The position numbers and the translations under genes were made by a program. The notes below the pieces were generated by a model. The model did no database searches. It was not told where the DNA came from and was given only the letters and a program-made list of their open reading frames with translations. A stretch of DNA of 61,861 bases, the filler included, from Sphacelaria rigidula (Eukaryota): NCBI GenBank assembly GCA_964200075.2. It is 8 parts of 8 records of this genome, joined end to end, with 100 filler letters (N's around TTAATTAATTAA, not from the genome) between each part and the next. Parts side by side here need not be neighbours in the genome. Positions count along the whole stretch, not along the records: positions 7,748 to 15,393 come from CAXNAA020013952.1; 7 more parts are not named here. One strand, given 5' to 3'. This document shows, piece by piece, positions 12,701 through 58,090 of the stretch. Each line of letters opens with the position of its first letter. Positions within the stretch are counted from its first letter, which is position 1.

Positions 12701-13504
12701 TTTATGCAGTTGAATCAACATTGCCTCGGTACAGTATCATTGCGCCGAGCAGCTTCGAAATCCAACGAGAAAGTGCTCTTCTACACTCGAACGAAACATG
12801 AAGTGGAGAAAAAAAACAAATTATGAAATTATCTCCCACACCTCTATGGGCAAGCATTGCTGCGATCCGTCACATGAAACGTTCCGTCCACACGAAAAAC
12901 ACTTTGTATCTACGTGACACCCACTAGCTATGTTAAACAAGACAGAAAAAACGCAAGTCTTCCTCGGACCTTAGGAATCTGGCGAATAAACAACATCGAA
13001 AGAACTTATCTCTTCTTCTAAATATCAGGGTCTTGTCCGAACAATAGCGTGAGCAATCGGCTGTTTGTGGATCAAAGTATGCAGGTGCGCGTGGAACCTC
13101 CCTTATTGATTCTAGTATACTTCGGACGTTTTCCTTGTGCGCTTGAGTTAATATCGACCGTTTCGGATCCGGTTTCCGAGGAACGCACCGACACTTGGCA
13201 CAATCGTTGCTTAGACAACCTCGGCACGAGTCAGATTCAAATCTTACATTTTGAAGCAAACAGTACCGATCTGTAGGGGTCTTTATGCTGGGACCCCCAG
13301 AAGCGTGTGGAGAGCGGATCAACCATGTAATGCTGTATACTTCACCTGGGCATAGTGCGCCACAACGGGTTTGTTCATTCATCGAATGCAGATGAGAATG
13401 TTCGAATAAAAATTTGAAAACAAACATCAGCAAGATATGTCGGTATAAACTGGAATATTGACCATTGCATGCGATTCCTCCTACCGGGTGGAACCGCACA
13501 CCAG

Positions 13505-14430
13505 GTCTTATGAGAGATGACCTCGCTGGCTACGCCTTTGATGTGGAAGATCATATGTATCTTAGGAGATACTCGTTCGATTTGGAAAGGAATGAAGACG
13601 CTAGGAAAGCGAGAGGCGTGACTCAAGGAAAGTTGTACTCCATGAGCTACTCATTTGATCTGGAAAGGAACGCAGGCGCCAGGAAAGCGAAAGGTGCTGC
13701 TCAAGAAGATATGTACTCCATGAACTATTCGTTTGATATGGAAAGGAACGACAACATGGAAACGAGAGATGTATTATATGAGCTATATTACTCCAATGAT
13801 CTAGGAAGGAACGGAGCCATCAGCGAGGCGAGAGGTGCAGCGCAAGGGAAAGTGGATGCCGTGAAGTACCCCACTGACCTGGGAATTAACGGCAACGGCA
13901 TGAACAAGAGAGGTACTGCGCATGGAGGAATGTATGCTATGAGCTACTCCTTTGATATGGGAGTGAACGCCAACACCATGGAAACGAGGGGCGCAGAACA
14001 GGGAGAGGTGCATTCCATGAGCTACTCCTTCGATATGGAAAGGAACGGAGCCGTCAACAAAGCGAGCGGTGCAGCGCAAGGGAAAATGGATCGCATGAGC
14101 TACTCATTTGATCTGGAAGGGGACGACGACACCACGGAAACGAGAGGTGCAGAACAGGGAGGGGCGTATTCTATGAGCTACTCCTTTGATCTGGGAGTGA
14201 ACGACAACACCATGGAAACGAGAGGCGCAGAACAGGGAGAGGTGTATTCCATGAGCTACTCCTTCGATATGGAAGGGAACGGAGCCGTCAACAAAGCGAG
14301 CGGTGCAGCGCAAGGGAAAATGGATCGCCTGAGCTACTCATTTGGTCTGGAAGGAGACGACGGCACCACGGAAACGAGAGGTACTGCGCATGGAAGAATG
14401 TATTCTATGAGCTACTCCTTTGATGCGTAA
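13505..14430 (+). CDS. Tandem-repeat protein (~12 x 26 aa, core YSMSYSFD); probably a terminal exon
   Basis: Uninterrupted ORF 13465-14430 with mostly 78-bp units, consensus G(A/T)xQGxxYSMSYSFD(L/M)(E/G)xNxxxxETR. Candidate acceptor caccag| at 13504; stop TAA directly after the last YSFDA. Confidence 0.75.
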
Positions 14431-14982
14431 AAATAGCTCGAAACGTTGTACGTCCGACATCGACGAGAACGTTTATTTTGTGGGAAGGAGCAAGTATCGT
14501 TGCGGACCGAACAAGATAGTATTTGCTTCCATAACGAGTACGCAAAGGTTTGCTTGGTTCTCTTTTCTTTGGCGCTGGCATGTCACTTCAGTTGTCGACG
14601 TTCTTGTCGTGTTGAACACGATTTCATCGAACATAGCGTGTGATCAAGTTACCTCGGATTATCGCATATCATTTTCCGCTCTAGTACTGTCCCTCTCTCG
14701 CTTGGTCGGTCGTTTTCACTCGAAGTTTTCCTCTCTTGTTTTTAGTTGTAGTCATAGCGCTATTGATTTTGTTCACGAAACGTGCGTTCCATTGAAGCGG
14801 CTGCAACCTGTTTGATGTAACTCTGGGCACAAGCCTTACTTGATGCTCAGGTTATTTGTCTTTCTTCGTGGCGTTTGTGTTCATCCGGAGTGTCATGATC
14901 GATGCCGCACGGTCACCTTTGTAATGCGTGAAAGGACCCGCGTGCTTAGGCGACCGTATCGTTGTTCAAATACGCCTATGGT

Positions 14983-15039
14983 CAGGGTTAGGGTTAGTGT
15001 TAGTGTTGTGTAGGGATAGCGTTGGGGTTAGGGTCAGGG
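14983..15039 (+). repeat. Degenerate interstitial TTAGGG-like repeat
   Basis: tcagggttagggttagtgttagtg...ggggttagggtcaggg. Confidence 0.6.
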
Positions 15040-16204
15040 GCGTGGTGCCTGCGAGGACTGGTTCAATTGGTTTAAAAAACGTCGACCCTGAGGTGTTTTG
15101 AACTACGATGCGGTCCCCTAAGCACGCGGTCCTCTCACGCATTACAACGCTTGTGATCTGTCTTGAACGTATTCCTGCGGGAGACTGAAACAGTGTGTTG
15201 TGACCGTTGCTCTCGCTTCAGCGACTGGCACATGAAAACTACGATGGACTGCTGCCGAGATAGCCCCCCCCCCCCAAAACCGGCCAAAACCGTGCACGGG
15301 GGCGATGATCATAACTGCCGTTAAAGCTGGTTTCGTGCTGCACGACGCGACTGATTCGGGTGTTATAGCTGATTTCGGACTGCTACACGCCTCNNNNNNN
15401 NNNNNNNNNNNNNNNNNNNNNNNNNNNNNNNNNNNNNTTAATTAATTAANNNNNNNNNNNNNNNNNNNNNNNNNNNNNNNNNNNNNNNNNNNNTGTACAT
15501 CTGATGCAGCGGCAGCTGCTGCTTCAGTCAGAGAGGCGTACTACAGTGTACTGTACTATTCTGTTGTATGTATGCGCGCCGCAGCGCTGATACCCTTCGA
15601 AGAGAATTTGCCGCATGCAACAAAGGGGGCAATGGCGGCCCGCCCCGCCCACAAAGGGCTGTGTGGCAAGATGATGGGGACATCAGTATCATCCAAAGCC
15701 ACAAGTGACGGGCGGCCCGCCGGTCGCCGCATCCTGTTGGGAGCTCTCTATCGCGACACGTACTGCTTGCTACATCAGATGTACACCACCTAATGCGCAC
15801 CCTGCATCTGAAAACAGACTAGATGAAACTTTCGGTCTTCGTCATAACCCTGCAGTTACATACGCGGATTTTAAGCAACACGCCACTGTTTCGTTTAGAC
15901 GCCAGACACGTCATTCCTGACCGGCCTCATCGGTCGTTCCGGAGGCCCGGTCCCAAAAGGGTTAATTACATTTGTCAGAAAGTGTGCTTGCTGCCTATAA
16001 TGTGAAATCTATTGTCTACTACAATAGCCGCAATAGTCGATATCGTACGCCATACACCTTTTGAGGATGATATTCATCGTCATCACCCGGGATGTGGATC
16101 CGTCGCGGATAAATGAATGTGAGAATGCCAATCTATCTGCTCTCACGCCTTAGTCCACTACTTGTATGTTGTTCTGTTCTACCTTTTTTTTTTTTCCTCA
16201 GCGG

Positions 16205-22300: not shown

Positions 22301-23239
22301 CGAAGCGGCACTTGACTCCCACCACGCCAGATAACACCTGTTCACAGGCCCATGCAAACTCCATCTGACTCATTCTCAGCTACCACCGCAACCCTGCAGC
22401 ATAGAGCACGAGTTGAGCCTAGTACCACGCCCGAAGACACGGCCAAATTCACAAAAAAACGGGTATGGTTGTGTCTGTTCGGCGTATTTTCTGCGGAGCC
22501 GGCGATACGGTCATCAACCATTTCACCGAAAAGGTGAAGAAGAGTACGCACTTGAGCATTGAAGGATCTACACGTGAAAAAAAAAAGGGGAAGAGATAAT
22601 TTTTTAGCGGAGACCAGGGTGTACCCTCCTCGTTTGTTTACAAGAAAAGGGTACTCTCACAGGCTGTTCTTTGCCACGCCGTAGTTAAGCCTAGTACCAC
22701 GTATGGGGGAAAAAAATAGCAGCGCATGCTGCCCAGACACCTTCGGCGTCGGGCTGAGGCGCTGGAACGTGTTTTTGAGGTGTTGAGTTTGCGTGCAGCG
22801 CCGCGCCCGTTGCCGAAAAATGCGTCACTTTTTTTTGTTCCATAAACACCATGGTGTACCCTTTCGCGTGTGTTGTCCTAAAAACAGTGTCGATAACAAT
22901 GAGCTAAAGACCCAGTTTTATGGCAACCACGAATCTTGATTTTTTCAAAATCGGAGGGACAAAAAATCGGGGAACGCTTTGTATGGACATGGATTTGGAC
23001 CAAGTCGGGGCCGAAAAAATTGGGGGGTCACGACTTCGGAACGGTTTTCCCCGATTTTCCCGAAAAATCGGGGGAAAAACGTTCCGAGATAGTGACTCCC
23101 CCGATTTTTTTGAGGTGACGTACGTGCATTGACGTACACNNNNNNNNNNNNNNNNNNNNNNNNNNNNNNNNNNNNNNNNNNNNTTAATTAATTAANNNNN
23201 NNNNNNNNNNNNNNNNNNNNNNNNNNNNNNNNNNNNNNN

Positions 23240-24430
23240 GAATAAGAGCTTGTCCTCGGTACTTCTGCTACGAACAGGTTGCAAGTCGGGTTGCCCACTT
23301 GAGCCTCAATTCAGAGTTAAACCTCAATTCGCACAATTTGCTGTTAATTTTTGAATTTTCTCGAAGGCTTCATGATGTTCAGAATTCCAGAGTTTCGACA
23401 CCTGTTTTGCCGATCCGTTTTTCGTGAGATCTACCAGTGGTGCTATAGTTGTAGCCAAGTCTGGTATGAATTTCCGTACGAAATTTATTGCACCGAGTAC
23501 TGATCGTAGCTCTTTGATATTGATGGAATTCGGCAAGTCGAGGATAGCTTTTATTCTTTCATCACTCACTCTGATGCCATCTGCGGATAGTACATGGCCC
23601 AAGTATTTGACCTGCTCTGGACCAAATTGGATTTTTGTCGGCTTTAATGGAAGGCCTGCTGTTTGCAGTGCTTTGAACGTGCTTTCTAGTAGGGTGGGAT
23701 GACTCTCCCAGCTTGATGAACAACAAATTATGTCATCCATATACACTAGTAAACCACTCTTGGGTCCAAAGTGTGCAAATGCTTGTGCCATAATGCGTGA
23801 AAATGTAAAGGATAAACACGCTAAACCAAAAGGTAACCGGCTGAACACCCATTGCCCTCTTTGAGTTACAAACGCTGTTTTCTCTTTTTCGTTATCCGCC
23901 ACTGGTATCTGGTGGAACACACTTTGTACATCGTACACTGTTATGAATTTCGCCCCTGCTACTGTGTCTTTGTGACTTTCGATAGCTGGCATGGGCCATG
24001 ATTTGCGAATCAAGTTTTAGTTTATCGTCGCTCGATAATCTACGCAAAATCGTGCTGTTCCGTCTGCTTTTGCGACTATTGTAACTGCTGATCTCCACGG
24101 GCTTGGGCGTTGTTCGACTATACTATCTTTTCCCATCTGGTCGACGCATTTCTCGATTGCGTCTTGCACTCTGGGTTTTGCTCTATATGGTGCTCGGCCT
24201 ACCGGCTGAGTCCCGGGTTTGAGCGGAAAACGTACTTCATCTAACGTAGAACAGCCCAACTCCTGCGAAGTAAGTGAAAACACAAAACGGTATTCTGCGC
24301 AAATATCCAGTATTTGAGAGCATTGTTCCGGGGAAAAAATCGTATTTTCGAAAGCCTTGCGTAAAGCTGGACGTGATAACTTCTTTCGCATTTTCTCTCC
24401 CTTACACCTTATTTCCCGCCATTGCACTGA
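23240..24430 (-). mobile_element. Ty3/Gypsy LTR retrotransposon pol remnant (RT)
   Basis: PSPWRSAVTIVAKADGTARFCVDYR, DVQSVFHQIPV, LPFGL, VYMDDIIC, VKYLGHVLSADG and LRSVLGAINFVRKFIP; frameshift near 24015. Confidence 0.92.
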
Positions 24431-25693
24431 CTGTGGCTGGTTTTGTTTCTCGTACTGGTGTCATGAGGAAGAAAGATGGAAAGGCGTTATTTGTTTCCAC
24501 AGGAAACTTTGGGGCAGGTTGGCTCACAGATCACTCGATCCATCCATGGAAATGCTCCTGTAGTTCTGGGGAAGGTTGATGTACAGACTAGCTTCTGGGG
24601 AAGGTTGATGTACAGACTGGTGTACCCTAGCTGGGGTAGGTTAGTGTGCAGGCTGGTATGCCATAGTCTCGAGGAGGCGAAACGCCTTCTCTGGCCGAGG
24701 TCGGATAGGTCGCGTTCCATGCACACTCGCCTACTCTTGAGCTGCCCTTTGAGCCGGACATCTGCTTCTACTGTTTACCTTTGGTGAGAACAGTGTGCTA
24801 GGTGAGCAAGGGAATGATGAGTGAGAGTTACAAGACATCAAGCCTTCGAGCTCCTTTTGTCTGTTTGCTACATACTGTTAACCAACAGTCGCGTGAATCT
24901 GTGTGTGAAACACATATCTGCAGCTTGCTCTACTCGGACATATTGCACCTTGTGCATCTCACCAAGCTTGCAGTGCATTGACCTATCAAGGAAGGTGTGT
25001 GGAGTTCTGTCCATACCTATCCCTCTTACACTGGGGTTCGACTAATTGGCCGTGTCTTGCTTGGTTTTTCAGTAGCCTTTCACTCGTATTCTTGTAGCCT
25101 CGTTGCCTTGTTTTGCTGTAGTTCACTACTGTCCCTCGTTTTTTAGTTGCACCTGTACCTCCCCTTTCTTTGTGTAGCAGACCACAGTCCTTGATTCTTA
25201 CTTTGCCTTTAGAGTGTTTTTTTTTGCTGTGTTTTAGTACGGTAGTTCATTCCCGCAGTTACGTTTCCCCCACAGCAGCCACCACTGCGCCGCCGCGGCT
25301 GGCGCACTCTGTCTTTGTTCTTCTCCTGCTTCGGTCGCTCCTTTTGCTGAGCCGCACGTTTGATCTGTAGTGCCCTTGTTCTGTTGACATCGGCCTTTCT
25401 GCCCCACATCGCTCGCCGAATATCCCGCCCAGCGTTGTGTCAGATTGCCTTTTGTAAACTCTTGCAGACAGTTGACATGATATCTTATTGGACAGATCCA
25501 ACAACGCCGCTTTTATGTTACAGCGAAAGCGACGATACCTTTTCTCCTTGCAGGACGTTGTCACTTGTGTACCGCTGCTGTGTCTATTGTGCGGTGTTCT
25601 CTCATTGTTGACACTGACTGCTTTAGTGTTTTCGTTCACCGCTTACAACCACGCTTACTTTTTCGGTGCGACAATTGCGTAGTCGCAACTGCC

Positions 25694-30707: not shown

Positions 30708-30984
30708 ACGGGATTATACAAGATGGGGATGGATCTTTATTTGGGGATGAAAACCCGGAGAATTGAAATATTCGTATCCACACTAAATCTTCGAAGTATG
30801 CTTCCATTTCTTCACCTAACAGGGTTGCCAGAAAAATGAGAACGTATTTTGAAATGAGAATCAACCGCTCCCCGGGATTGTGTCNNNNNNNNNNNNNNNN
30901 NNNNNNNNNNNNNNNNNNNNNNNNNNNNTTAATTAATTAANNNNNNNNNNNNNNNNNNNNNNNNNNNNNNNNNNNNNNNNNNNN

Positions 30985-33107: not shown

Positions 33108-35402
33108 GTGGGTGCAGAGGCCTGGTTGGAAGGGTTACGTATCAGAAGACGTGCAGTGGGGCCTATCAGCGCCCCGGCGCCAACGCTCACAAAGCAAGAA
33201 CAATGGGCGCGAGAAGCGGGTTGGCACCAGAGCAGCGCAAGCACGACGCCCGCACCACACGATGTTTTACGCACGCAGTTTGTATTGGCGACAACAGCCC
33301 CGTGGGCTATAGCTTTTCGTGATGACAAAAATTTCGTGCCGGGGATGCTGGAGCAACATGTTGACTTCTGGGACAAAACTTTGTTAGCAGGACACCCGGA
33401 CCATGGCAAAATTTTACCATGGATTGTACACGGGGTAAGTGTATTCGGTTTCTTGAACGATCGAGCAAAAGGGAAAACAGTATACCAGCCGTTCGCACCA
33501 GACGCTTTCCCAGGACGTGTTTTCCCAAATCGGATCCCGCGAGAACATGCCGCTTTCGTAGAGGACGAGGTAACCGCTTTGGTAGACAGGGGATGCTTAG
33601 TACCTTGGGCAACAGTTAAGGACCCAGGAGGAGGCCGCAGACCTAGACGTATAGAAGCTTTGAGCGTCGAGCCCACGAAGCCGCGACTAGTATACGATGC
33701 AAGACCACTTGACGAAGACTGTAAGCATGTACCTTTCTCCATGACACAGTGGGTGCGATTGCGGGCATGGCATGGCAAGGATGCTTTCAGGGTTCTTTAG
33801 ATAACAAAAGTGGGTTTCATCACATCATGCTGCATCCAGACTCGTGGCCGTTGTTTGGTGTCGAATTCCAGGGAGTGGACTACGTATGGACGGTAATTCC
33901 ATTTGGTTGGAATGAGAGCACGTACGTCCATCACGACATTTCGGGAGTCAGATCATATTTCTTGAGGGCGCGTGGCATACCCGCAACTACATACATTGAC
34001 GACGCGTGGTTGACAGGCTTGTTGAGCACAAAAGGACAGGTAGAGCAGTTGCAGTGGAGAGCAGCGGCGGCAGTGATAGCACTGGCAGTGTCTGTTTCCT
34101 TCTTGGCAGGGTTTTACTTGAGCATCAAGAAGTGTGATCTTGTCCCGCGGAGAGTGCAGCGATACTTTGGCATTATATGTGACAGTGAACGAGCGGCGTA
34201 CCATGTTCCGCAGGACAAGCTGGACAAGCTTGGCACCTTGATTAGGAGGGTGATGAAAAACAGGGCAGTCGATGCGGCTACACTGCAGAAGATCGCGGGA
34301 AAGTGCATGAGTATGAAGGTAGCGGTGCGGCCGGCGTCCCTATGGACGCACTTCATTTTCAAGGATGTGCAAGCGCTCGACAAAAAGGTTAAAGGGAAAT
34401 GGTTGACGGAGATCCCAGTGCAGAAAGGTAGCGGCCTCTGAGGATGAGTTAGAGCTATGGTTAGGCGTTACGCAGCACTCGCAGCAGGGTCCGTGGTATT
34501 CCGCCAAGCACTATGCGCTGGCCGTCACGAGAGGCGCCACGGATGCTTCGCCCATGGGGGGTGTGATGCGAGTGGACGGTCAGCTTTTCCAAGCTGGTGC
34601 AGAGGTTTCCTCAGTATGGACACAGCAGCACATTAACGCCAAGGAGGCATTCGCACTTAATAAGGCCTTGCGTGAATTTTGCAGGAGAGCGCCGGGGCGA
34701 CTTAGAGGAGCGCAGGTTTAAGTGGATGTTGACAATATGTCAGTGGTGGATGCTTTTGCACGAGGTAGATCGAGAAACCCCAGTACACATGCACTGTTGC
34801 TCGATCTATATAACCTGCAGAGGAGAGAGGGATTTTGGTTAAGGTTGCAATGGGTATCATCCGCGCAAAATAGCGAAGCAAGTGCTATTGCCAGAACAGG
34901 TAGGGTGGAGTTTGTGAGGTGGCGCCATGAGATTTTCGCGGATTTGTGGATATTCTTCGGGGCATTTGACGCAGACTTCATGGCCACAAACGTCTCAGTA
35001 CACCGGGTGCCACGAGGGCAACCAAGAGAGGGCAGTGGGTACCCGTTTTGCGCGCGATACGCATGTCCGGGAGCGGCGGCAATAGATGTGCTGGCGCAAG
35101 ATGTTGCATTGACTCCGGGCTTGAGCGAGAAGGGTCTTTATTTCTGTTTCCCGCCCGTGTGTATGGTGGGGGGGGTGTTGCAACGAATGGGGGAGTGCAG
35201 GGCAAGAGCAGTGGTCGTGGTGCCAGCGACAAAAGGGGCTTGGTACCCTAGGTTAAGGAGTGCGCGTGTCAAGGAGAAATTGGTAGCAAAGGCAGGAGAG
35301 CGGCATGCTTTCTTCTCAGAGCACCGTACAAAGGGTGTAAGGCCGTTTGTATTTGAAAAGTGGGACATGGTAGCGGTGGAGCTTAATTTTGGCCTGGCAT
35401 AG
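33108..35402 (+). pseudogene. DIRS-type pol: reverse transcriptase, RNase H and N6-adenine methyltransferase-like domain (2 frameshifts, 1 stop)
   Basis: RT: KPRLVYDARPLD, LDNKSGFHHI, VIPFGWNES, YIDD. RNase H: TDAS, HINAKE, VDN, WVSSAQN. MTase-like: FDADFMAT..IDVLAQD..YFCFPP..VVVVP..WYPRL. Frameshifts at ~33745 and ~34440; TAA at 34719. Confidence 0.88.
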
Positions 35403-35453: not shown

Positions 35454-36848
35454 GTGATGGAGAGCACAGATACCTGGGTGGCGGCATTTGCGCCGATAGG
35501 AGAGAGCGGAGGAGGAATAACGGCAGGAACAGCCTCTCTAGGGGTGCCCCAAGGCGCTACCAGAATTGCAGATCGGATGCCTAGAGTGCTGTACGGAGCA
35601 TGCCTAGAGCATAATAATGGCAATTACAGGTTTTGTCAGCGCTGTGGTGTGCCCGCCAAATTAACGCGGCCGGCACCGCGACCGCAAGGGGAGGCCCACT
35701 TGCATATCAACGACAGTCTGCTTAATGACAGGCTGGCGGCGTTTGCCGCAGCAAGAGCGGCTAAAGTTGGGCATAGGCGTAAGAAGAGTGTCGTAGCAGA
35801 TGATTTCGACCGTTTCATACGACAGCGTTCGGGTGGCGCAGTAGGGTGGGAAAATGCCACGCCAGAGCAAGTCGTGGATTATGTGGCATACAAGGACTCG
35901 CAGAGCACGGGTACAAAGGTAGTGCACGTTCCGCAATGCCCACAGATAGGCACAGACAGCTTGGTACAATGCAAAGATCTAGGTCTCGGGTGCGCGAAGC
36001 GGTATGCACATACTTCGCTAAATAAACAGTATATATCGAAACTGCGCTGTGCGTATACGGAGATCCTCGCTAACAGCGACGATTGGTCCGTCACAGAACA
36101 CCGAGGTAATCCGGTCAAGAGTGTGCCAGTGACGGAATACTTAGCATTCGCGGCCGCAGAGCAGCAGAAGGCGGGTGTGGCTACAAAGCAGGCGAGGCCG
36201 CTGCTACGGCCGGACCTAGCCGCGTTTGTCGCAGCTATCAGAATACAGTTAGCAGGAACTGAAAACCCCGCGGAGTCCATTGCTTTAGTCAGGGATATGG
36301 CGTGGTTTATGGTGGCTTCACGTACGGCGGGTAGAGGAGGAGATTTGACGCGTATGATGGCAGGAAGTGTTCTGCGGCTGCCCGAGGATCAGGGTATCGT
36401 CTTGAACTTTCGTTTCACCAAAACGCTGAGGGAGGGTTCGCGGCATGTATGCTACGTAGCCCCAGACAGGGATATGCGTGACACGTGTGCAGTGGCGGCG
36501 CTACAAGTATATGCACAGGCCATGAAATCATGCGGCTGGCAGGGAAACCAAGGTTTCCTTTTTCCCGAGATACGGAGGACAGGTGATATTAGGTTGGCAA
36601 AGTGTGATACCGCGATGACACCGCGGGCGATGACGGCTCGACATCAGAAGCATGCCCAGCGAGCGGGTTTGGGGGATAAAAATTTTATGATGCATTCATT
36701 CCGGGTGGGGGTGGCGGTAGCGCGCACCATAGCGGGCCAGGATGTGGCGACAGTTATGGCGCAGATTGGGTGGAAGTCGAGCCGGGTTGCGAGTCGGTAT
36801 ATTGGGCAAACAACGCGACCGGAGCGACACGGGGGTAAGGCGCAGTAG
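35454..36848 (+). CDS. ALOG-domain tyrosine recombinase (Cys-rich N-terminus, ALOG DNA-binding domain, YR catalytic domain)
   Basis: Open ORF of 464 aa (possible ATG at 35577). ALOG-like TKVVH..CP....C....C.KR.A..SL...ISKLR.AY..GNP..S..V..YL....EQ..AG. Catalytic residues R (GRGGDL), K (TKT), HSFR, GW and SRY. Confidence 0.9.
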   Translation: MMESTDTWVAAFAPIGESGGGITAGTASLGVPQGATRIADRMPRVLYGACLEHNNGNYRFCQRCGVPAKLTRPAPRPQGEAHLHINDSLLNDRLAAFAAARAAKVGHRRKKSVVADDFDRFIRQRSGGAVGWENATPEQVVDYVAYKDSQSTGTKVVHVPQCPQIGTDSLVQCKDLGLGCAKRYAHTSLNKQYISKLRCAYTEILANSDDWSVTEHRGNPVKSVPVTEYLAFAAAEQQKAGVATKQARPLLRPDLAAFVAAIRIQLAGTENPAESIALVRDMAWFMVASRTAGRGGDLTRMMAGSVLRLPEDQGIVLNFRFTKTLREGSRHVCYVAPDRDMRDTCAVAALQVYAQAMKSCGWQGNQGFLFPEIRRTGDIRLAKCDTAMTPRAMTARHQKHAQRAGLGDKNFMMHSFRVGVAVARTIAGQDVATVMAQIGWKSSRVASRYIGQTTRPERHGGKAQ

Positions 36849-37564: not shown

Positions 37565-39013
37565 CACCCGTAGACAGATAGCACCCTGTGGGGCGCACTG
37601 TGCAGGGTCCGTACAGGGTCCTCCACAGTCTTTGTGAAAAAAGCCTGACAGTGAAATGCAAAATCTGTACCCATCGCAGCGTTTTGATAGGGTTTTCCCC
37701 AGGGTTGGATTTGCAGCCCTGTGTAGGCACGTCGGCAAAGTCCTGCACAGTCATGTGGTCGTGTTTTGGTGAAAAAACCTCAAGTTTTGTTTTTGAACAT
37801 TCCAAATTTTCTGGTACAAAATCTGTAAATTTATGTATCTTGAATACCTTGTCCTCCTGTCCGAGGTAAATTCCTCTTCACCCGATTTGAATCGAGCGAA
37901 AAGGAATTTATTTTCGACAGCAGGACAAGCTAGATCCAAAACAGATCCTCTTCTCGCCCAATTTAGTTCGGCAAAAAAAATATTAGTTAGAAGAGCGGAA
38001 GAAGCTGTTCATGATCGATCCTTTTTTCGCTCATTTTTGAGATGAGCGAAAAAAGGATCTACTTCGAACAGCTTCTTCTGCTGCGCAAATCCCATGCACA
38101 CTGGCAGATTCGGAATTTGAACAGCAGAAGAAGCTCGAAATAAGTACTTACTTTTCCCTCCAATTCCATCCAGAGATTGAGGGAAAAGAAATTTAATGCA
38201 AGCAGCGTCAGCTGCTGGGCAGATCCCGCAAACTGCATCGTCACCGGCGCATGCGATCCGACACGCAGAAAATGATGATGAAAGGTATTCATCCTTTTGC
38301 CCCCCAGTCCATGTGTACATGGGCTAAAGGATGAATAGCTCTCAGCCGCTTTCGCTGAATAAAGATTCCACACGTTGGATACGTGTGTTTGTCCACACCT
38401 GTGCTTCGTCTGAAGCCCCCGGGAAGGTGTGGGAAGATGCCAGATGATCGGGTATACCTCGTCAACCTATTACATTTTTCACAAAACCCCGTCTTCCATC
38501 CTCCACCACCACGAACCATGTTCAGAAAATATCACTTAATCAATCGTATATATGAATAAACAGCCGATTTTATATTTTGGGGTTCATACAAAATATGGGG
38601 CTGAAGTGGCATATCTCTCTTGCACGAAANNNNNNNNNNNNNNNNNNNNNNNNNNNNNNNNNNNNNNNNNNNNTTAATTAATTAANNNNNNNNNNNNNNN
38701 NNNNNNNNNNNNNNNNNNNNNNNNNNNNNCAAACGTCTTTCGACACTTTCTACGATAGCCCCCCCCCCGGAACCAGCTAAAAGTGTCACGAAAAAAATGG
38801 CCATACAGCGCCTGATGTTCGGGTTGAGGCTACATGAAGCGCCTTATATTGGCGACATTTGCTAGAACGAACCCGAGCGTGGGAATTCTCAGCTTCTCGT
38901 TGTGCTCGGCTTTTCCCATTTCGATTTGAGTGAATATTTTGCTTCCCAAAATCATGCACTTTTTTGGGGGGGCTATCGTAGAAAGTGTCTTTCTCGCAAC
39001 CTCTCTGTGAAAC

Positions 39014-44872: not shown

Positions 44873-47673
44873 CGTTTCACCAGCGAAGGGTCCCGACACA
44901 GGTTCCGATGATTGTCGTGTCGCCGTGCGTTGTCCCTGAGTCATCATGGTGAACGGGCACGAAATACACAACTGAGGCAAAAAATAAAACTCGTTTATAA
45001 TTATTGCAAAACCAAATTCTGAACGCTCCCATAAGAGTTGGCCTTAGAAAGTAATGGTCAAACATGGGCTGCTCTGGCTAGTAGTGTACTGTCTAACTGT
45101 CGCTAGCAAAAATAGAACCAATTCTCAATCCATTCATACAAGTGCAAAAAAACGATTTACTGAAACTACAACAAAACAGTATGGTTTACGGAGCCGTCTC
45201 CGCCTGAAACTTGGAAGAACATCGCTTGTTACAGGATTGAATACTCCACAAGACCAGTCGCCGAGCTACAGCATGATTCCGTTCGTTCTGGTGTCGACGG
45301 CTCGATCGTCAAACAGGGCGTCGGGCAGCTATTCCCATGGAACGTGTTCATAAACGAAATGGCGTACTTCAGACGGCGGCTCCGCGGCTCGATGTTCGAG
45401 CATAGCTTCGAAAACTGCTTTTCTCTAGGCTTCAACGCTGCCCGCTTGTTGGGGCTCGTGTTGGCGCTCCGGTGAGCCCAGTAGAGAGGATAAAGAGAGT
45501 CTGAGCGATTGATCCGTCGCTCCAGAGTGGGGTAGTCACCGTTGCGTTTGATCGCCATGCAGATTCGAATCAGTTGACCATTTGGGAACGCGCAGTCTTG
45601 CATTATCGTGCAACCTCCATCTACGATATGCATATAGGATATCATATTCATGTGGGTATATATCTGAGATATCAAGGTACATTTGGGATGTTCACCTGAA
45701 GTAGTATCGCTGCCCGTATGGAATTTCCATCTGGGGTATGCACATCCCAGATGGATAATGATATCCCCAATGGATTGTGATCTCAGATGCATATCCCAGT
45801 TGGTTACGAGTATAATACCCCAGATGGAGATTGCACGGTAATGCAAACTAGAAATCATGGCCTGCCAACTACCAGAAGCCCTGCGTGAGGGTTGTCATTA
45901 GCAGATATATGTAACCGACGTCATGGAAAGTCACCAAGAAGCAAGATGTTCGGCGTGACAGGTCAAGCCACAATTCAACCCCGATGGTTCTCACTGTAAT
46001 ATTTTGAGCACAATCCCTCGACCTGCCAGAGGAGCATTCTGCGAATAACTTGTGACCATCCTCTACCGTCAGAAGCGGTTTCCGGCATGATGCCCATGCA
46101 GCAGTGACGCGTGTTGGGATTACTTGGTCCAAATCATTCATGGTCGGACCTTTAGGGTGTGCAGACCACTGGACCTCCCCTCCCCGACCGCCATCCGTCT
46201 GGGGTTGGTTGTGTCGGGGTAGGCTAACCCCGTCGACAACACAAGCAGTAAGTAAGGGAGGGTGAGTTGACCTACTGGCTTGTCTGCGTGTCGTGTCAAT
46301 GGTAACACAACATACAGTGTAGGTAGTGGGTCATGTCGACGGTGCCAATATCCAGGCTCAATGCTGCAGCTGCNNNNNNNNNNNNNNNNNNNNNNNNNNN
46401 NNNNNNNNNNNNNNNNNTTAATTAATTAANNNNNNNNNNNNNNNNNNNNNNNNNNNNNNNNNNNNNNNNNNNNAAAACAAAAAATTCTGGATGAGGCATG
46501 CTGCGTTGAGGGACTTCCATACCACCATTTATTTTGAGGGGGGAAACCCCCCCCCCCCCCCCCCCTCCCTCCCTCTCTGATGAATGTTTCAAACTTCGCT
46601 AATAAAAGATCCCGTGCAGAGATAATGTTTTACAGGGGATTTCCAAACAAATCTGGCGCAGTGGTTTTTGGGTTGGTATAAAAGACCGGGTAGAGCATTC
46701 ATTGGGTCAAATGAATCATTGCCCGTCAGCGAACGCTGGCATCTAGTTGCCGTGTTCTTTTCTATTGTATAATAAGATACGCAACATTCTATTCAGATCA
46801 CCCGGGCAACAATTTTATCAATTGATGGAGACATTCACCCAATTCCGGCCAAAAGTAAACGTCTGCACGCATCCCGTTGTCCTCACCGAAAAGCTCTTCC
46901 CCACAAACGTTTGTGTCCCTCGGTTGATGGTTTGGCCAGAAAACATTGAAAAAAACCGATTCCTTTCAAGTTGAGAGCAAACAATACTTTTGCGCTTCGT
47001 GCTCGCCACTGGCTTGTCCCGACGTTTGCCAAGGCTATACAACTGTTGGAAGCCACGGGATTTTCATCAAGGTACACCAACTTGAAGGCGAAGGGGCGGG
47101 CAAGGAGACGTCCCAAGGTAAATATACATACAGCACATACATCACTCCAGTAAACCCCGAGCCTGAAAACATCATCACCGGTAGGGGTTGCTTCCTTCGT
47201 GTTTCTCGGTACGGGTCCTATTCCATTGTTGAAAAATTCACCTGAGTCCTGACCCGTACTCATTTCCCCAAGCCTTGGTGCGAGTGTGAGTACACCCGAT
47301 GTTCCGCTGCAAGGCCTTCTCGAAGCCCAATATCTTCGTCTCCTCCGCGATCAGTCGCTGGCGCTCGAGGTCCGCCAATCGTTTCAGCTTGCTCAGGTCC
47401 TCGTCGCGAGCACTCTCAACCACCCGTATCTTAGCCTGGAACGCCCTCTCCGTAACCTCATCCTACAATTCATGTAAACACGCACATGTATGTATACATA
47501 CACACCGTGAACAAGGTGCAACTCGTGTCGATATCGACTTCAACGCTATTCAGCCGACAGCACGTGACGAAAACATACGTGTAGGGAACATGCAAGGAAA
47601 TACACTTTTAGCGCGGGTGTCTTCACACCTCTCCGTTGAATGAATGGTACAAACTACGGTTTTGAAAACAATG

Positions 47674-52755: not shown

Positions 52756-55525
52756 ATGGGTGCCTACTCACGTTCACAGGCAGAAGCTGATGGTCGCAAA
52801 ATGTTCTACCGAATGGCTCTTGCAAGTGTATTACGATATAGGGATGAGTAAGCAAGGCACCTGAAATCCATGTATTGGGACCATACACGAACAAAAAACA
52901 ACCAATCGAAGTGCTTCGTCAGTCGTAGTTCGCGCATGCATATGCCGACACCAGGCAGAGACAGTGCTCGACAAGAAATCAACAGTTTTTTTCCCATTTA
53001 CGACAGTTTTTTCTTGGAATCTGCATATTTGGCGTTCTACGTAGTCGCCCGGTGCCTGTGTACGTCGCTCCTACTTCTCACACGAGAGACGGCGCCTTCT
53101 TTGGCCATAATCATCGCCGTATCCTCCACTTTCCTCTCGCTTGCCGTGCGTCGCATTTGCAGGTTCATCTCCTGTCTCAGCTTTGTTATTGAAGCGTCGG
53201 CCTGCCGAATCGCCTCATCCTTGTGAGACTGTCGACCGCCTGCGCGCGCGCGCGTGTGTGTGTTCCGTTTCGTTTCGTTCCGTGTTGTTTAGTTCAGCTC
53301 TGTTTGTATGTTGTTGTCATCGACAAAAGAGTGAAGGGAAAAAAAAAAAGGTTGCAATATCCAGCATGGAGAAAATCGGGAAAACTCGGAACAGTACGCA
53401 CGAAAAACGAGAAAAAAAAACGTACAAAGTACGTAAAAAATGTGCTACACCCACGTTTAGTTTTCAGGTCTCCGGGGTCCAGAATGGATCCGCCTATGGT
53501 CGTGTGGGGTTTTTCATTTTCGTCACCCGGTTCAAATACGACGAGGTATATTTTTTTGGTAGGTGTTGGTAATCACGTGTATTCCCATGCGGGCCTGGGT
53601 GGAATCTGCCGAACCGGGTTGCCATACCAAGCATGTTGCAGGCGCGGTACAACGCATGACGTTTCTGGACAAAAGTCCCCATTGGGGGAGAAACATGGTG
53701 GTGAACGGGTTCAACGATATTGTGTCACACGCTCGTGTTTCCATACTACGGTCCGGGAAATAGTGTTTTGGTTGAGGAAAATTCTGTGGTAGAGTCGGGA
53801 CATTCCGCACATGTCCAGTAGTGTACATGTAACCCGGCGGGATTAATTACATTACGCGTGTCTCTTCCCGGCTGAAATATAGTCCTGTGGGAGTATATCT
53901 TGAGACGATGATCGAAAAAGCGGTGAAGCAGCGAACTGGACGTCGTCCCCGAAGCCCTACCTCGAACTCGCTCTGAACGGTAGCGTTTGTCTTACTCTCG
54001 ATGTTCTCTCAAGTTTTCTTGTTTTTTCTTCCAATTCTTCGAATTTTGTTCTTGAAACAGCCAATCATCTATGTTGAGGATGGTGCTTTTGATTGAGGAT
54101 GAGAACCCGGAGGATTANNNNNNNNNNNNNNNNNNNNNNNNNNNNNNNNNNNNNNNNNNNNTTAATTAATTAANNNNNNNNNNNNNNNNNNNNNNNNNNN
54201 NNNNNNNNNNNNNNNNNGGGGGGGAAGAGAACGATGTGTTGGGTTCATAATGGTGAACAGAGACTGCAATTTTTGAAAACCATAACATGCTCCCCTTTCG
54301 TCAGTTACTCAGTGTCATTATACCGGGGTTTGGAACAGGGCGAAGGGCTATGTTTAGAGCAGTGTAGGAGGAGTGCAGGTTTTACAAATATATCTCCCGG
54401 TGTTTTTCGTACACCGTTTTATGATGCCATTATGCTTTTTGTAATGATGATTTTCTTCATTCGCTGGTTATAATATTACATATCATTCATCAACGATGTA
54501 ACTTGTTTTCCTTTATTAAAGGTAAATTTCAAGATAAGACGATCTAATTGGGATGGAACTGGGAACGAGAAGGACGAGGACGAGGAGAAGGACGAAGGCG
54601 AGGTGAGCGGACCGTTACTGCAGTAGTCCATGGTTGAACATGGTATCGCCCCCCGTGGGGATTTTGTCGCGGACGATTTATCACGTCACTCAAAAGTTTG
54701 AGAGTCGGTAGGCATTGAAACAAGGAGCAGGTCGATTTCCCAATTTTGTCTTGTCGGAACGATACGGCGGAAAACCCTGTTTATCGAGCGGAATGTTGTT
54801 GACCCCGATTATATCCGAAACTACGATTTTTCGGCTGTTGCGCAATGAATATACTGAGACAGTAGAATAACTGAGGCCGATAAATGGTACATTGTAACCG
54901 TCCGGATCGGTCCGGTCGAGCGAAGAGATCAATTAGCGAAAACCGGAGGCTGTACACTCGTGGGGCCCCCTTCGACCGGTGAGCCCGTAATTCGTGCAAA
55001 ATTGGTCGTGGAAAATACAACATGTACATGCTATCCAAATTTGTGTGGGGTACTTGCGGTCTCTCGATTCCCATACTTTTGCATCAAACAGAAACGGTTT
55101 TGAGTCGTGGCAACCGAAAAAGTGAAGAAGAAAAACCGCCTTCAGTCGATTTGTTTAGTGAAATGTTGAGTACTGAAGGACATCAAAACCTCTCACGTTT
55201 CTATCATCCCTTGCAACTACGGGCCCAGCCACATATACACAGTACAAATACACAAGACGCATGCAGCAGGTTTCCGAAGAAAGCACGATGGGTGGATACA
55301 GAACGACTTTTCGACCCCACTATATCAGGACCCCTGTCTGGTACATCAACAAGTAATTTTGACCGTACTGCACTGGGGTGGGCGGGGTACAGTCTGGGGT
55401 TGTTTTCGAACGTGCCACCTGTATCGAGGCCCGGACCGTACTGAATACTAGAAGCATACACTAAGCACAAAAACGCGGACACGCATACACACACATACAC
55501 ACACGCGCGCGCATGTAATGTACAG

Positions 55526-58090
55526 GTTCACGAGTGGACGTACGAAGGCGAAATAGGAGAACAAACGGAAGCCCCCGAGGTCCTCGCCGCAAGGCGAGAA
55601 GCAGTGCGTGAAGCTGCGCGCGCTGCGGGTATGCGCGGGCTACCCCCACCCCCGCCACAGCCCTCGGCAGAAGAGGCGTTCCCATCCCTGAGACCAGACC
55701 GCCCGGCACAGCAAATAAGTGGCTGGGCCAGCCTCGCGGCCTCGGGCAACCGTCCGCGGGCGGAAGATTTCCCGGTCCTACACGCGCCGGCGGCCGCCCC
55801 GAAAAGCAACACGAGGGGTAGGGGCGGTGGTGGGGGATCGAATTTCAGGGCGGCCGTACAGGCGTACCCAACCCGAGCGCAGGAGTTGGCCATGTCCGGA
55901 CCCGGGGAAGGGGGGTGCTGCTTCGAGGTGCCCATGCCACCGTCGCCTGAACGACCGAACAAGAAAGGCGGCGGAAAGGGCGGAGGAGGTGGGGGGGGGG
56001 GGGGGGGACCCCGCCGTGTCGCGGGGATCGGGAATATGAAGCTTAAGGTAGATAAGAAAGCCGGCAAGAGAAAACAGAAGGGTGGCGGGGGTGGCGGTGG
56101 GGGTGCTTCGGGCCATCAGCCCCCTGCGAGCCCTGCGAGGCAAGCCCAAGCGGGGGCAGGCGTACAAGCTGTTCCCACGGTGGCATCCCCTGCGAACGAG
56201 TTTCCACTTGCTCCTGGAATGAAGCCGCCGGATCTTTCGGCCGGTAACCAGACAGGGTCGGCGAGCGCGGTTGCTGCGTCGTCAGGCCCGACATTAGCGC
56301 AGACTATCAGTGCACAGCAGCGCCCTGTGGTTGCGGCAGCGGGGGATGGGAACGGTTCTCTGTCGGTGGTAGAGCAGCTGAAGGAGTTGCTCGGGGATGA
56401 GGCGTTTTCGGAGGTAAAGGAGCTGTCGGCTAATTACAGGTCGGGATGGATGCTGCCGGGCGAATACTTCAAGGCTATGCAGGAGCGGCTGCCGAAGGAC
56501 AGGTTTGGGTGAGTTTTTTCATCCGGCGTGTGTTGTTTTGGTGAGATGAAGGAGAGAAGGAGGAGGAGGCGAGGGAAAAAATACACAATGCATGGCTGTG
56601 AGCGAGTTTGTGGCTTGGCCTGACGAGTAGAGCATGGCTGCTGTGTGTGAGATACACAAATCTTGAAGGTGTGTTGCTACTGTATAGTATCCTATTTGAC
56701 CGTTCACTCGCAACTCTTCGTGTTTTTTTCACCTTTTCCGGTGCGTGTGAATAATTCCTCGCACTGATCGCGTGGTCCTTAGTTGACGTACCCGGGGATG
56801 GGGGCCTTCTGCACCAATCGGTAGGGTTGTCCATTTCATGTTTTGTCCTGGCTTTGGTTGCGCACTACTGACTCCTCATGCGGTTACGGGCCCGCCGTCT
56901 GCTTTTTCGTTCTTGTTTTTTACAACAGAGAGCTCTTCGAAGGACTGGTCGACATCCTTCCCGACGCGGACAAGAAGCGAGAGATGCTCGTGCTGCTGTC
57001 CGCTAGCCGGGCGGTGCAGGCCAAAAAAGAGCTAACCGCGGCGGCGAAGAAGGACAAAAAAGACGCAGTCAACAAGAACAAGAAGGGTCCACCACCTTCC
57101 ACCACTTCATCTATCTCGGACAAGCGCGCCAAAGACGACACTGCAGCAGTACCTGATGCGCTTCCCAGCGACGCAAATGTTTCCACTGTCAACGGCACCG
57201 CCACTGACCCCTCTCGATCTCCATCTCATGCCAATTGGCCCGGACTCGGAGGGAGTCCGTCGCCTTCCGGAGAAGAGCAAAACGGAACGGCGAATGTAAG
57301 CCGAAAAACGAAGGCAAACAGCAGCACCGCAGGAGGCGGGGCGCGGGGAGCCAAGAAGAACACCCAGGTCGCCGCGACGCCAGCGCCAGGTAGTGCGGCA
57401 ACCTGGCTCAAGGCAATGAACAAGACGGGTGGGGGCGGCGGGGGTAAAACCGGAATTTCAGTGGTACGTACGTCAAGGGGTACAGGTGGCGGTGGCGGCG
57501 GCGGGGGTGCTTCGAAATCTTCTAACTCCCTGTCTTCGCTAGCGGATACCGGTGGAAGCGGTAGGGCAAGGTCGGAGTCTCCCCCCCCAGGTGTTCCCAT
57601 GCGTCGGAGGGCCGATGATGATGACGCATATACCGGGGGAAGGATACAGGATGCCGGAGCGTCATGGGCAAACCTTGGAGGCTCGGGCTTCCGCGGCGGC
57701 GGTAGCGCCAACGGCAAGAAGAAAGGGCATACGACTGCTGGTAGGGATGATTTTCCAGGACTACCTGGAGGGCGGGCGGTGACCCGCACTGCGGTATCTC
57801 CGCCACCGGTGGTGGACCCTGCCGGAAGGCGAGTCGAAGGTCGGCCTATGAATATGTTTGCGCCGAAAGTAGATGCCGCCCCGCCGCCGGCGCACCCCCC
57901 CGCGTCGTCCAGTCGAGATGATTTCCCAGGATTACCGACGCCTGCGCAAGCGCCGCCTGGGTTGGAGCGGGTAGATTGGGGCACGGTGGTGGAGTCCGCG
58001 ACTGGCGGAGCGGGGAAAGGTGCGAAAAAGAGGAACAAGCAGAAAGCTGAGAAGGACACCTTGAAAGGGATGGCTTTTGGTTTCAGGTAG
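55526..58090 (+). CDS. ZNF598: 3' exons (55526-56508, 56929-58090) of a ZNF598/Hel2-like ribosome quality control E3 ligase
   Basis: The phase-2 splice GG|gtgag..caacag|A reconstitutes VEQLKELLGDEAFSEVKELSANYRSG..EYFKAM..FGELFEGLVDILPDADKKREML, which matches the ZNF598/Hel2 C-terminal helical domain. Repeated (E/D)(D/A/E)FPxL motifs; C-terminus KKRNKQK..L..AFGFR*. The RING and zinc fingers are not in the contig. Confidence 0.8.

Follow-up and report, generated by a model that had tools for sequence, protein, structure and literature searches.

A transcribed tandem-repeat gene of Sphacelaria rigidula and the predicted beta-strand fold of its 26-residue units

A tandem array of 78-nt units lies in an open reading frame (ORF) of the brown alga Sphacelaria rigidula, at positions 13462..14430 (+) of a 61,861-nt stretch of genome assembly GCA_964200075.2 (hereafter the window). 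The question raised by this locus is whether the array encodes a precursor from which small peptides are cut, as proposed in an initial annotation made from the sequence alone, or a protein that acts intact. The gene was found to be transcribed and spliced, and we give about even odds (roughly 0.5) to the reading that the gene is lineage-restricted and expressed and that its product acts intact as a beta-strand repeat protein, probably in the cytosol and without being cut into peptides.

Transcript and repeat architecture

The window is composed of eight unlinked pieces of about 7.6 kb, and the repeat gene sits in the piece at 7748..15393 (7,646 nt), which has a 10-N assembly gap at 11801-11810. 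The pieces are joined at seven places about 7,746 nt apart (7648-7747, 15394-15493, 23140-23239, 30885-30984, 38630-38729, 46374-46473 and 54118-54217), each joint consisting of 44 N, the 12-letter all-frame stop linker TTAATTAATTAA and another 44 N. Because the pieces are separate, features outside 7748..15393 are not genomic neighbours of the repeat gene.

Eight sequencing runs were found to contain at least half of the sampled words of 12900-14900, one of these locus-containing runs being labelled algae metagenome, and four of them (X1, X4, X6 and X8) were compared with the whole piece. X1 covered 30 of 30 bins of the piece, introns included, and contained neither of the splice joints described below. 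Its word depth was about 25-65 over plain sequence and the ORF, and 10^3 to 10^5 over segments resembling transposable elements (7748-8002, 8513-9532, 11828-12082, 12338-12847 and 14888-15393), with peaks of 36,178 (11828-12082) and 8,576 (12338-12847) that both fall within intron 2, where plain bins had about 25-30. Because of this cover and depth pattern, X1 behaves as genomic DNA. The runs X4, X6 and X8 represent three samples of one study; their RNA nature was a guess from the record, and they are taken as RNA because GT..AG joints span both introns. Stretches of the piece that these runs left uncovered were not counted as evidence. The joint 9954>10288 (333 nt skipped, GT..AG) and the joint 10400>13504 (3,103 nt skipped, GT..AG when the cut is placed one base rightward) were each found in one contig of each of these three runs. 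Contigs of the same runs continued through the array (13504-14071, 14065-14305) and then to 15008 or 15107, and in this comparison not one base difference or indel was listed between the contigs and the genome within the ORF.

The repeat ORF is therefore placed in exon 3, the last exon, of a spliced plus-strand messenger RNA, and the gene is transcribed and spliced. The repeat array itself is low copy and lies outside any high-copy element. The upstream exons guessed in the initial annotation exist, two of them being present in the spliced contigs of three samples, and transcription, whose absence had been named there as a point against the proposal, was seen in X4, X6 and X8. The extent first given to the ORF holds in part: the frame is indeed open from stop to stop over 13462..14430 (322 codons), but its first 43 nt (13462-13504) are intron, and exon 3 begins at 13505. 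The contig of X4 departs from the genome at 9875, beside a possible acceptor, with 27 unaligned letters on its 5' side that may come from another exon. The features of the transcript and of its coding sequence (CDS) are as follows.

9777..9954 (+): exon 1, covered from 9777 in X6, from 9796 in X8 and from 9875 in X4, its 5' end being minimal; in-frame stop at 9789-9791; non-coding in its observed form
9955..10287 (+): intron 1, 333 nt, GT..AG; joint present in X4, X6 and X8, not in X1
10288..10401 (+): exon 2, 114 nt, in contigs of X4, X6 and X8; donor after 10401 (cut moved by +1)
10402..13504 (+): intron 2, 3103 nt, GT..AG; contains the gap at 11801-11810 and the transposon-like segments 11828-12082 and 12338-12847
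13505..15008 (+): exon 3, made up of the last 5 nt of the leader, the CDS and at least 578 nt of 3' untranslated region (UTR); followed as far as 15107 in X4 and X8 contigs
13510..14430 (+): repeat-protein CDS, 306 amino acid residues (aa) and a stop codon, from the first in-frame ATG of the RNA-supported transcript
13510-13581 (+): partial, degenerate units 5' of the regular array
13582..14424 (+): regular repeat array, ten full 78-nt units (13582-13737, 13801-14424) and one 63-nt unit (13738-13800)
13957-14190 and 14191-14424 (+): the two youngest higher-order blocks, three units each, 92.3% identical

The high-depth segments in and around the gene are presumably transposon fragments; those at 7748-8002, 8513-9532, 11828-12082 and 12338-12847 were also present in the RNA-like runs. 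At 14888-15393 the copy number was very high in each of the four runs, and loose contig ends were numerous. Telomere-like hexamers of the GGTTAG type (10.3 copies) occur at 14980-15039, just past the 3' UTR, and TTAGGG was observed in three and two copies at 7036-7071 of the first piece.

Within the ORF, Tandem Repeats Finder returned a period of 78 nt at 13566-13751 (2.4 copies, 80% matches) and at 13931-14424 (6.3 copies, 71%), together with a higher-order period of 234 nt at 13806-14424 (2.6 copies, 85% matches, score 865). Exact matches to YSMSYSFD, MSYSFD and YSFD were counted 4, 7 and 9 times in the 306-aa protein. With a loosened core pattern, 13 copies were found; the first four intervals between them are 13, 26, 26 and 21 aa and the remaining eight 26 aa each, the spacing being 26 aa in 10 of the 12. 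Counted in this way, the array comprises 10 full units of 26 aa, a shorter one of 21 aa and, at its 5' end, two that are partial, which is close to the intact ORF of about 12 such units that had been described at the outset. Because the repeat period is a multiple of 3, an open frame of this length carries less weight than would 322 codons that were independent of one another.

Two columns, G12 and Y23, do not vary among the 10 full units, and four others (G16, S24, F25 and D26) reach at least 90% conservation. The conserved core that had been reported is thus present, whereas the linkers, which had been described as varying, do so only in part: they contain the invariant G12, and of the 10 units 9 have kept G16, 8 have kept N4 and 8 have kept Q15. 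The residue before the invariant Gly is basic in 8 of the 10 full units and Ser in the other two, and the C-terminal end of the protein lies one residue past the last core; both observations match what the initial annotation had seen, namely a basic residue followed by Gly in most linkers and a stop right after the last core.

Predicted fold of the repeat units

The repeat protein is acidic (isoelectric point 4.65, net charge -18) and hydrophilic, with a grand average of hydropathy (GRAVY) of -0.85. Its 306 residues include no Cys, no Trp and one Pro, with Met and Tyr making up 7.5% and 7.2%. In columns 18-26 of the unit and the L/M that follows, hydrophobic residues (Met, Tyr, Phe or Leu) alternate with Ser or Asp, which are polar; this is the pattern of an amphipathic beta-strand. 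When the single sequence was modelled with AlphaFold2, a mean predicted local distance difference test score (pLDDT) of 59.2 and a predicted template modelling score (pTM) of 0.58 were obtained, with block means of 65-76 from residue 141 on and low confidence over the N-terminal third (82 residues below pLDDT 50). The model has 22 strands, two per unit across the regular part: the core strand and a partner strand in columns 7-15, with a turn at columns 16-17 and a loop at columns 2-6. This layout weakly suggests that each unit is a beta-hairpin rung of a solenoid.

The model was then compared with 48,161 chains by VIA-align. The highest Z scores (18.8, 18.2, 17.8, 17.7 and 17.6) were obtained with SufB/SufD-type beta-helices and curli CsgA; the best match was 9h78_B (Z 18.8, rmsd (root-mean-square deviation) 2.9, 225 aligned), and the match to curli CsgA 8c50_A had a Z of 17.8 but an rmsd of 9.3 Å. 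A long list of beta-helix adhesins, tailspikes and lyases followed. The model thereby aligns at Z 17.6-18.8 with known beta-solenoids (8c50_A; the SufB/SufD-type 9h78_B and 5awf_A), and short units (26 aa), conserved Gly, Asn and Gln, and a strand of alternating hydrophobic and polar residues are likewise found in beta-solenoid repeat proteins. In contrast, no sequence similarity to curli or SufB-type proteins was detected in Pfam and Protein Data Bank (PDB) sequence searches, and the fold of the repeat protein is an AlphaFold2 prediction of moderate confidence. Curli subunits, moreover, are secreted bacterial proteins, whereas the repeat protein is eukaryotic and no signal peptide was found on it. 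MORN repeats, YD/Rhs repeats and the aromatic-Ser low-complexity segments of RNA-binding proteins were considered as leads; none of them was matched in Pfam, and the repeat protein is not assigned to any of these groups.

As a control, the antisense translation of the array (100 aa) was modelled in the same way, giving a pLDDT of 38, a pTM of 0.35 and almost no structure, as against block means of 51-74 for the sense protein over roughly the same DNA; since the control is shorter, this difference is supportive, not decisive.

If the favoured beta-strand reading is correct, each 26-aa unit would form a strand-turn-strand element. The core (columns 18-26 and the next L/M) would be an amphipathic strand, one side lined by Met, Tyr, Phe and Leu and the other by Ser and Asp; linker columns 7-15 would provide the partner strand with small residues toward the aromatic face, and Asn4, Gly12, Gln15 and Gly16 would be placed in or beside turns. 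Some 10-12 stacked units would then give an elongated beta-solenoid or beta-sheet scaffold, possibly a self-associating one. A protein made and folded as predicted would represent a new repeat-protein family in an independently multicellular eukaryotic lineage.

The composition may also be read differently, as that of a disordered 'sticker and spacer' protein in which the aromatic/Ser motifs are multivalent, the spacers are polar, and function comes from avidity or condensates and not from a fixed fold. The low GRAVY, the net charge of -18, and nearly neutral linkers rich in Gly, Asn, Asp, Glu, Arg and Thr would all suit such a protein, as would constraint limited to about 8-10 residues per unit and the low confidence of the N-terminal third of the model. 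Moreover, in a fungal protein described below (P0001) a motif of 10 residues that is almost identical recurs every 29 aa between quite different spacers, which contain Pro; this would be expected of a short linear motif. On the other hand, a single Pro in 306 residues is unusual for disordered regions, the spacing is strictly 26 aa in 10 of 12 intervals, and Gly, Asn and Gln are conserved inside the spacer. The regular hairpins modelled at a pLDDT of about 70 over the regular units also speak for a fold, and the core matches no known binding motif that could be named. The disordered protein is regarded as unlikely.

Translation start and peptide processing

The first in-frame ATG of the spliced transcript is at 13510, five bases inside exon 3, and under the favoured reading translation would start there. 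Followed from there in the 5' direction, the repeat frame crosses exon 2 and most of exon 1, some 95 codons, with neither a stop nor an ATG, until it is closed by the stop at 9789-9791 within the X6 contig. Given this open upstream frame and the unaligned letters of X4, a longer protein with another N-terminus is possible.

The leader (297 nt) contains three upstream ATGs, at 9781, 9953 and 10360, which open the following upstream ORFs.

9781..9834 (+): upstream ORF 1, 17 codons, in the leader
9953..10363 (+): upstream ORF 2, 25 codons, spliced; ends in a TGA that overlaps the ATG opening upstream ORF 3
10360..13513 (+): upstream ORF 3, 16 codons, spliced over intron 2; its TGA (13511-13513) overlaps the main ATG (13510-13512)

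The ATG at 9953 is created by the exon 1-exon 2 junction, so that it exists only after splicing, and it has a good context; the context of the main ATG is weak. A relay chain of at least two overlaps ending at the main ATG, a pattern that was spotted post hoc, arose in 226 of 20,000 dinucleotide shuffles of the leader. The arrangement suggests that termination-reinitiation through overlapping upstream ORFs feeds the main ATG, and the start of translation at 13510 would possibly be reached by this relay of two short ORFs.

The N-terminus that begins at 13510 carries charge and lacks any hydrophobic stretch: over its first 37 residues, the highest Kyte-Doolittle mean of an 8-aa window is 1.15. 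By this hydropathy scan no signal peptide was found on the RNA-supported protein, whose transcript may be incomplete at its 5' end; a product without one would stay in the cytosol. A signal peptide had been expected in an upstream exon, an expectation that was not borne out: both upstream exons are without an in-frame ATG or a signal peptide. An additional start exon with a signal peptide was sought in 7748-9870, and none of the 65 ATG-to-GT candidates in the right phase was convincing. The best of them, 9449-9595, was rejected, as it has an acidic residue in its hydrophobic run and lies partly in a bin without X4 depth. The initial annotation had also mentioned a Tyr/Ser-rich wall or adhesive protein; its idea of a structural protein comes closer to the favoured reading, although no sign of secretion was found.

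These results bear on the proposal that the gene encodes the precursor of secreted, possibly Tyr-cross-linked multi-core peptides. This would require an isoform with a further 5' exon supplying the start codon and signal peptide; cleavage at the basic-Gly site in mid-linker would then release about a dozen peptides that end in the Tyr/Ser/Phe core and may be oxidatively cross-linked. The conserved, repeated cores and the end of the protein directly past the last of them fit this proposal, and so do the basic residue ahead of Gly in 8 of the 10 full units and the stronger constraint on the core than on the linkers (see below). The frame that is open for about 95 codons through exons 2 and 1, and the departure of the X4 contig at 9875 with its 27 unaligned letters near a possible acceptor, would leave room for the further exon. 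Against it stand the RNA-supported transcript, in which no in-frame ATG precedes the array and a stop is met at 9789-9791, the N-terminus without a signal peptide, and the lack of a convincing start exon in the 2.1 kb upstream.

The processing sites were compared with those of the KEPs (fungal KEX2-processed repeat proteins), which include ustiloxin- and phomopsin-type precursors of RiPPs (peptides that ribosomes synthesize and that are modified after translation). The KEP screen of PMC6339444 looks for three things: repeats within the protein, a signal peptide, and KR/RR or KK sites that lie between the repeats and give at least 4 fragments. Tandem, nearly identical Tyr-containing cores with more variable spacers in one small protein are common to both, and against the at least three nearly identical internal repeats expected of a KEP, the protein has MSYSFD 7 times, YSFD 9 times and 10 full units. 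The sites are different. KR or RR was found at only 2 places and KK nowhere, so that cutting yields 3 fragments (20, 114 and 172 aa) instead of the at least 4 of that screen, whereas KEPs, as described in PMC6339444, have a signal peptide and KR/RR/KK between all repeats. The view that the cores are separated by basic processing sites was not upheld, since the dibasic sites are not conserved. The sole semi-conserved basic residue is single and lies in the middle of the linker, and no conserved cleavage site follows the core; any released peptide would consequently carry 14 linker residues. The spacers also differ from those of KEPs in holding an invariant Gly and conserved Asn and Gln. Excised-peptide spacers need neither the invariant G12, the conserved G16, N4 and Q15, nor a fixed spacing; a folded beta repeat would be the better fit for these features, for units set strictly 26 aa apart and for a protein with almost no Pro.

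No other recognisable gene was found in the 7,646-nt piece, to which the search for tailoring genes was confined, and no gene for a modifying enzyme is visible in these 7.6 kb of true context. In the first piece, the second half of an ORF at 6218-7027 (+) contains a His-rich stretch, SPHGPVHVWLGG, and had no Pfam match at E <= 0.001. This stretch presumably resembles the CuB site of tyrosinases and polyphenol oxidases. As the piece is unlinked, the tyrosinase-like fragment is no evidence of an oxidase beside the repeat gene.

The peptide precursor is an improbable reading, the least favoured of those considered. Two published sequence features of such precursors, the signal peptide and enough dibasic sites, were not found, the former provisionally, the 5' end being incomplete; were the reading true, no multi-core peptide precursor would have come from a brown alga before. 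More likely than such a precursor is a beta-solenoid protein that arose de novo out of a minisatellite, its translation passing through the relay of two upstream ORFs.

Constraint, relatives and other features of the window

The coding status of the array was assessed by comparing its units with one another. The 10 units contain no stop in the repeat frame and 4-15 stops in the other five frames, and the pairwise omega was 0.535 in the repeat frame versus 0.705-0.955 in the other five. For MSYSFD it fell to 0.148 (0.056 without one degenerate unit) at a core synonymous divergence of about 0.50, and for the linkers it was 0.77-0.84; all of these pairwise figures count shared changes many times over. 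On a tree of the units, the events per site at codon positions 1/2/3 were 0.67/0.67/1.17 in the core and 1.28/1.44/1.56 in the linker, the third positions of the core changing about 1.75 times as often as the first or second. The residue G12 is constant while its third codon position varies, and the length changes among units (spacings of 26, 21 and 13 aa) are all in frame. Furthermore, none of the 72-101 inferred substitutions created a stop, the expectation being 2.7-4.7% of random substitutions. The comparison of core and linker that the initial annotation had called for thus came out as it had anticipated in the pairwise figures (0.148 versus 0.77), but the event-based contrast was not significant (p = 0.51). 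As judged from these alignments, constraint appears to be real but moderate, and to act on the core and a few Gly, Asn and Gln positions, the linkers being otherwise nearly neutral.

Several results weigh against the favoured reading. The absence of new stops is only moderately telling, with p = 0.0007-0.053 for stop fractions of 0.04-0.07 and p up to about 0.15 (by hand arithmetic) at the fractions of 0.0265-0.0346 that apply under strong transition bias. Minimal-event counts gave 5 synonymous and 7 non-synonymous events in the core versus 19 and 43 in the linker (Fisher p = 0.51). Of the codon differences between the two youngest blocks, 12 are non-synonymous and 2 synonymous, about a neutral ratio, and 3 of these differences are in the core; the linkers show no codon-position bias. 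All constraint was estimated among units of a single array, with no orthologue for a between-species test. Translation of the CDS is predicted, and the main ATG has a weak context with three upstream ATGs ahead of it; the ATG-free frame of about 95 codons and the 27 unaligned letters of X4 leave the N-terminus less certain. As for the fold, the mean pLDDT of the model is only 59.2, Foldseek gave 0 of 93 matches at E <= 0.001 (best 0.11), AlphaFold2 has a known bias for repeats and over-calls this kind of fold, and the antisense control was not only shorter but covered a less regular part of the array.

Much of this would also be expected of a young, barely constrained ORF, formed when a minisatellite whose 78-nt unit by chance has no stop in one frame expanded in the last exon of a transcribed locus rich in transposable elements. 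The RNA might then code for nothing or be translated poorly, and any protein made from it would have no established function. The 234-nt structure and the 92.3% identity of the last two blocks indicate a recent expansion at the DNA level, and the 12 to 2 ratio between these blocks, the unbiased linkers, the event-based p of 0.51, and the weak main ATG behind three upstream ATGs point the same way. So do the closing of the ORF one codon past the array, a locus full of high-copy segments, the want of a relative in any search (below), and the commonness of orphan genes in brown algae according to PMC6374913. However, the frame has remained open through 72-101 substitutions and through length changes that are all in frame, the third positions of the core are about 1.75-fold more changeable, with residues unchanged at a synonymous divergence of about 0.5, and G12 is fixed over a variable third position. 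Spliced RNA was moreover assembled in three separate small runs, and the sense frame folds in AlphaFold2 where the antisense does not. We consider the young ORF possible, and the strongest rival, but clearly less probable than the beta-strand repeat protein. It agrees with the latter, and with the sticker-and-spacer protein, in that no processing into peptides takes place.

Relatives were sought in sequence collections that together span about 15 billion proteins, as well as in metagenomes, viral contigs and the PDB. A word-seeded search of 5.8 billion cluster representatives returned one match only, P0001 (E 3.7e-3), and an exhaustive phmmer search of 1.84 billion representatives likewise one, P0002 (E 1.3e-5). 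P0002 was rejected as a relative, for it owes its match to a short Tyr/Ser/Phe/Thr stretch in the long repeats of an otherwise unrelated-looking protein of 1,720 aa. With a two-unit profile, none was found among 8,000 longer candidate proteins scored, which is weak evidence. The metagenome scan gave 20 pattern matches by protein, none of them confirmed, and 0 by the degenerate core DNA pattern; 2 pattern matches in viral contigs were not confirmed either, and the ESM Atlas gave no usable match. PDB sequence searches returned 0 matches for the protein and, for the profile, 1 irrelevant match (E 0.42). In Pfam, 6 weak matches to the protein were all below the cut-offs (best E 0.0043), none being to a solenoid repeat family, and nothing above the cut-offs was found for the exon 1 and exon 2 frames or for P0001.

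Over the whole window, Rfam gave 0 matches, and a profile search in six frames found no units outside 13462-14427 (best other E 2.4). Exon 2, in which a faint likeness to the repeat had been seen by eye, was rejected as repeat-derived, being undetectable by the unit profile. In the literature, no published description of the repeat protein was found, either by the core letters in full text or under brown-algal secreted tandem-repeat orphan genes. Related genomes do seem to be present in the protein database that was searched, since it returned many relatives of a reverse transcriptase (RT) from contigs of megabase size.

The repeat gene is most likely a lineage-restricted orphan, judging from these searches. 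PMC6374913 defines an orphan gene by the lack of a BLASTp match at 1e-4 in other proteomes; in the collections searched, where brown-algal proteomes were not queried by name, the repeat protein has none. It resembles the brown-algal orphan genes described there in having no detectable homologue outside its source. Such genes are said in the same text to be frequent in brown algae, and often strongly biased in their expression over the life cycle, so that one more is unsurprising in itself.

P0001 is a partial protein (CAH1767961.1) of the arbuscular mycorrhizal fungus Entrophospora sp. SA101, and the other proteins of its 4-member cluster are from Entrophospora sp. SA101 as well. It has, at residues about 70-215, five tandem units with the motif LM[SP]YSFDLG[VTI][ND], which is nearly identical to MSYSFDLGVN, the core and first linker residues, of the repeat protein. 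The two-unit profile scored 44.7 bits on P0001, versus a maximum of 22.1 in 2,000 repeat-preserving permutations. A null test with the one-unit profile was set aside (real score -7.9, exceeded by 512 of 2,000 permutations); it is uninformative because the motif common to both proteins spans the unit boundary. The two proteins differ in that P0001 has a 29-aa period, spacers rich in Pro and Lys, about 110 aa of C-terminal domain outside the repeats, and an N-terminal region that is acidic. The match also misses E <= 1e-3 in the exhaustive representative search, and since P0001 was picked from billions of proteins, chance or convergence is possible. The likeness may accordingly reflect homology, convergence on a common motif, or chance.

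If the beta-strand reading holds, the family arose by expansion of a 78-nt unit, with the higher-order duplication still visible, and would provide a case for the birth of a gene from tandem repeats followed by selection. The core, which recurs in the fungal repeat protein, may be the mark of some short motif that binds or self-associates. With its clean repeat architecture, the motif in common with a fungal protein and the upstream-ORF relay, the gene is a modestly interesting case.

Other features were observed in the remaining pieces of the window. An RT of the long terminal repeat (LTR)-retrotransposon type lies at 23327-24460 (-), in the region of the boundary between pieces 3 and 4 (RVT_1, 81 bits), and its top three named relatives are in Ectocarpus sp. 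CCAP 1310/34 (67-68% identity, E 2.5e-100 to 4e-96). Provided that all pieces derive from one genome, these relatives and the algae-metagenome label of one run make a brown alga the likely source. In piece 5, an RT-like ORF at 33725-34438 (+; RVT_1, E 4.5e-4) is followed by a tyrosine-recombinase-like ORF at 35454-36845 (+; Phage_integrase, E 3.7e-4), both below the Pfam cut-off; we take this order to suggest a DIRS-like retroelement. Finally, piece 8 has two long open frames at 55445-58090 (+), with runs of Gly, Ala and Pro, a more ordinary C-terminal part and no Pfam match, which may belong to a host gene.

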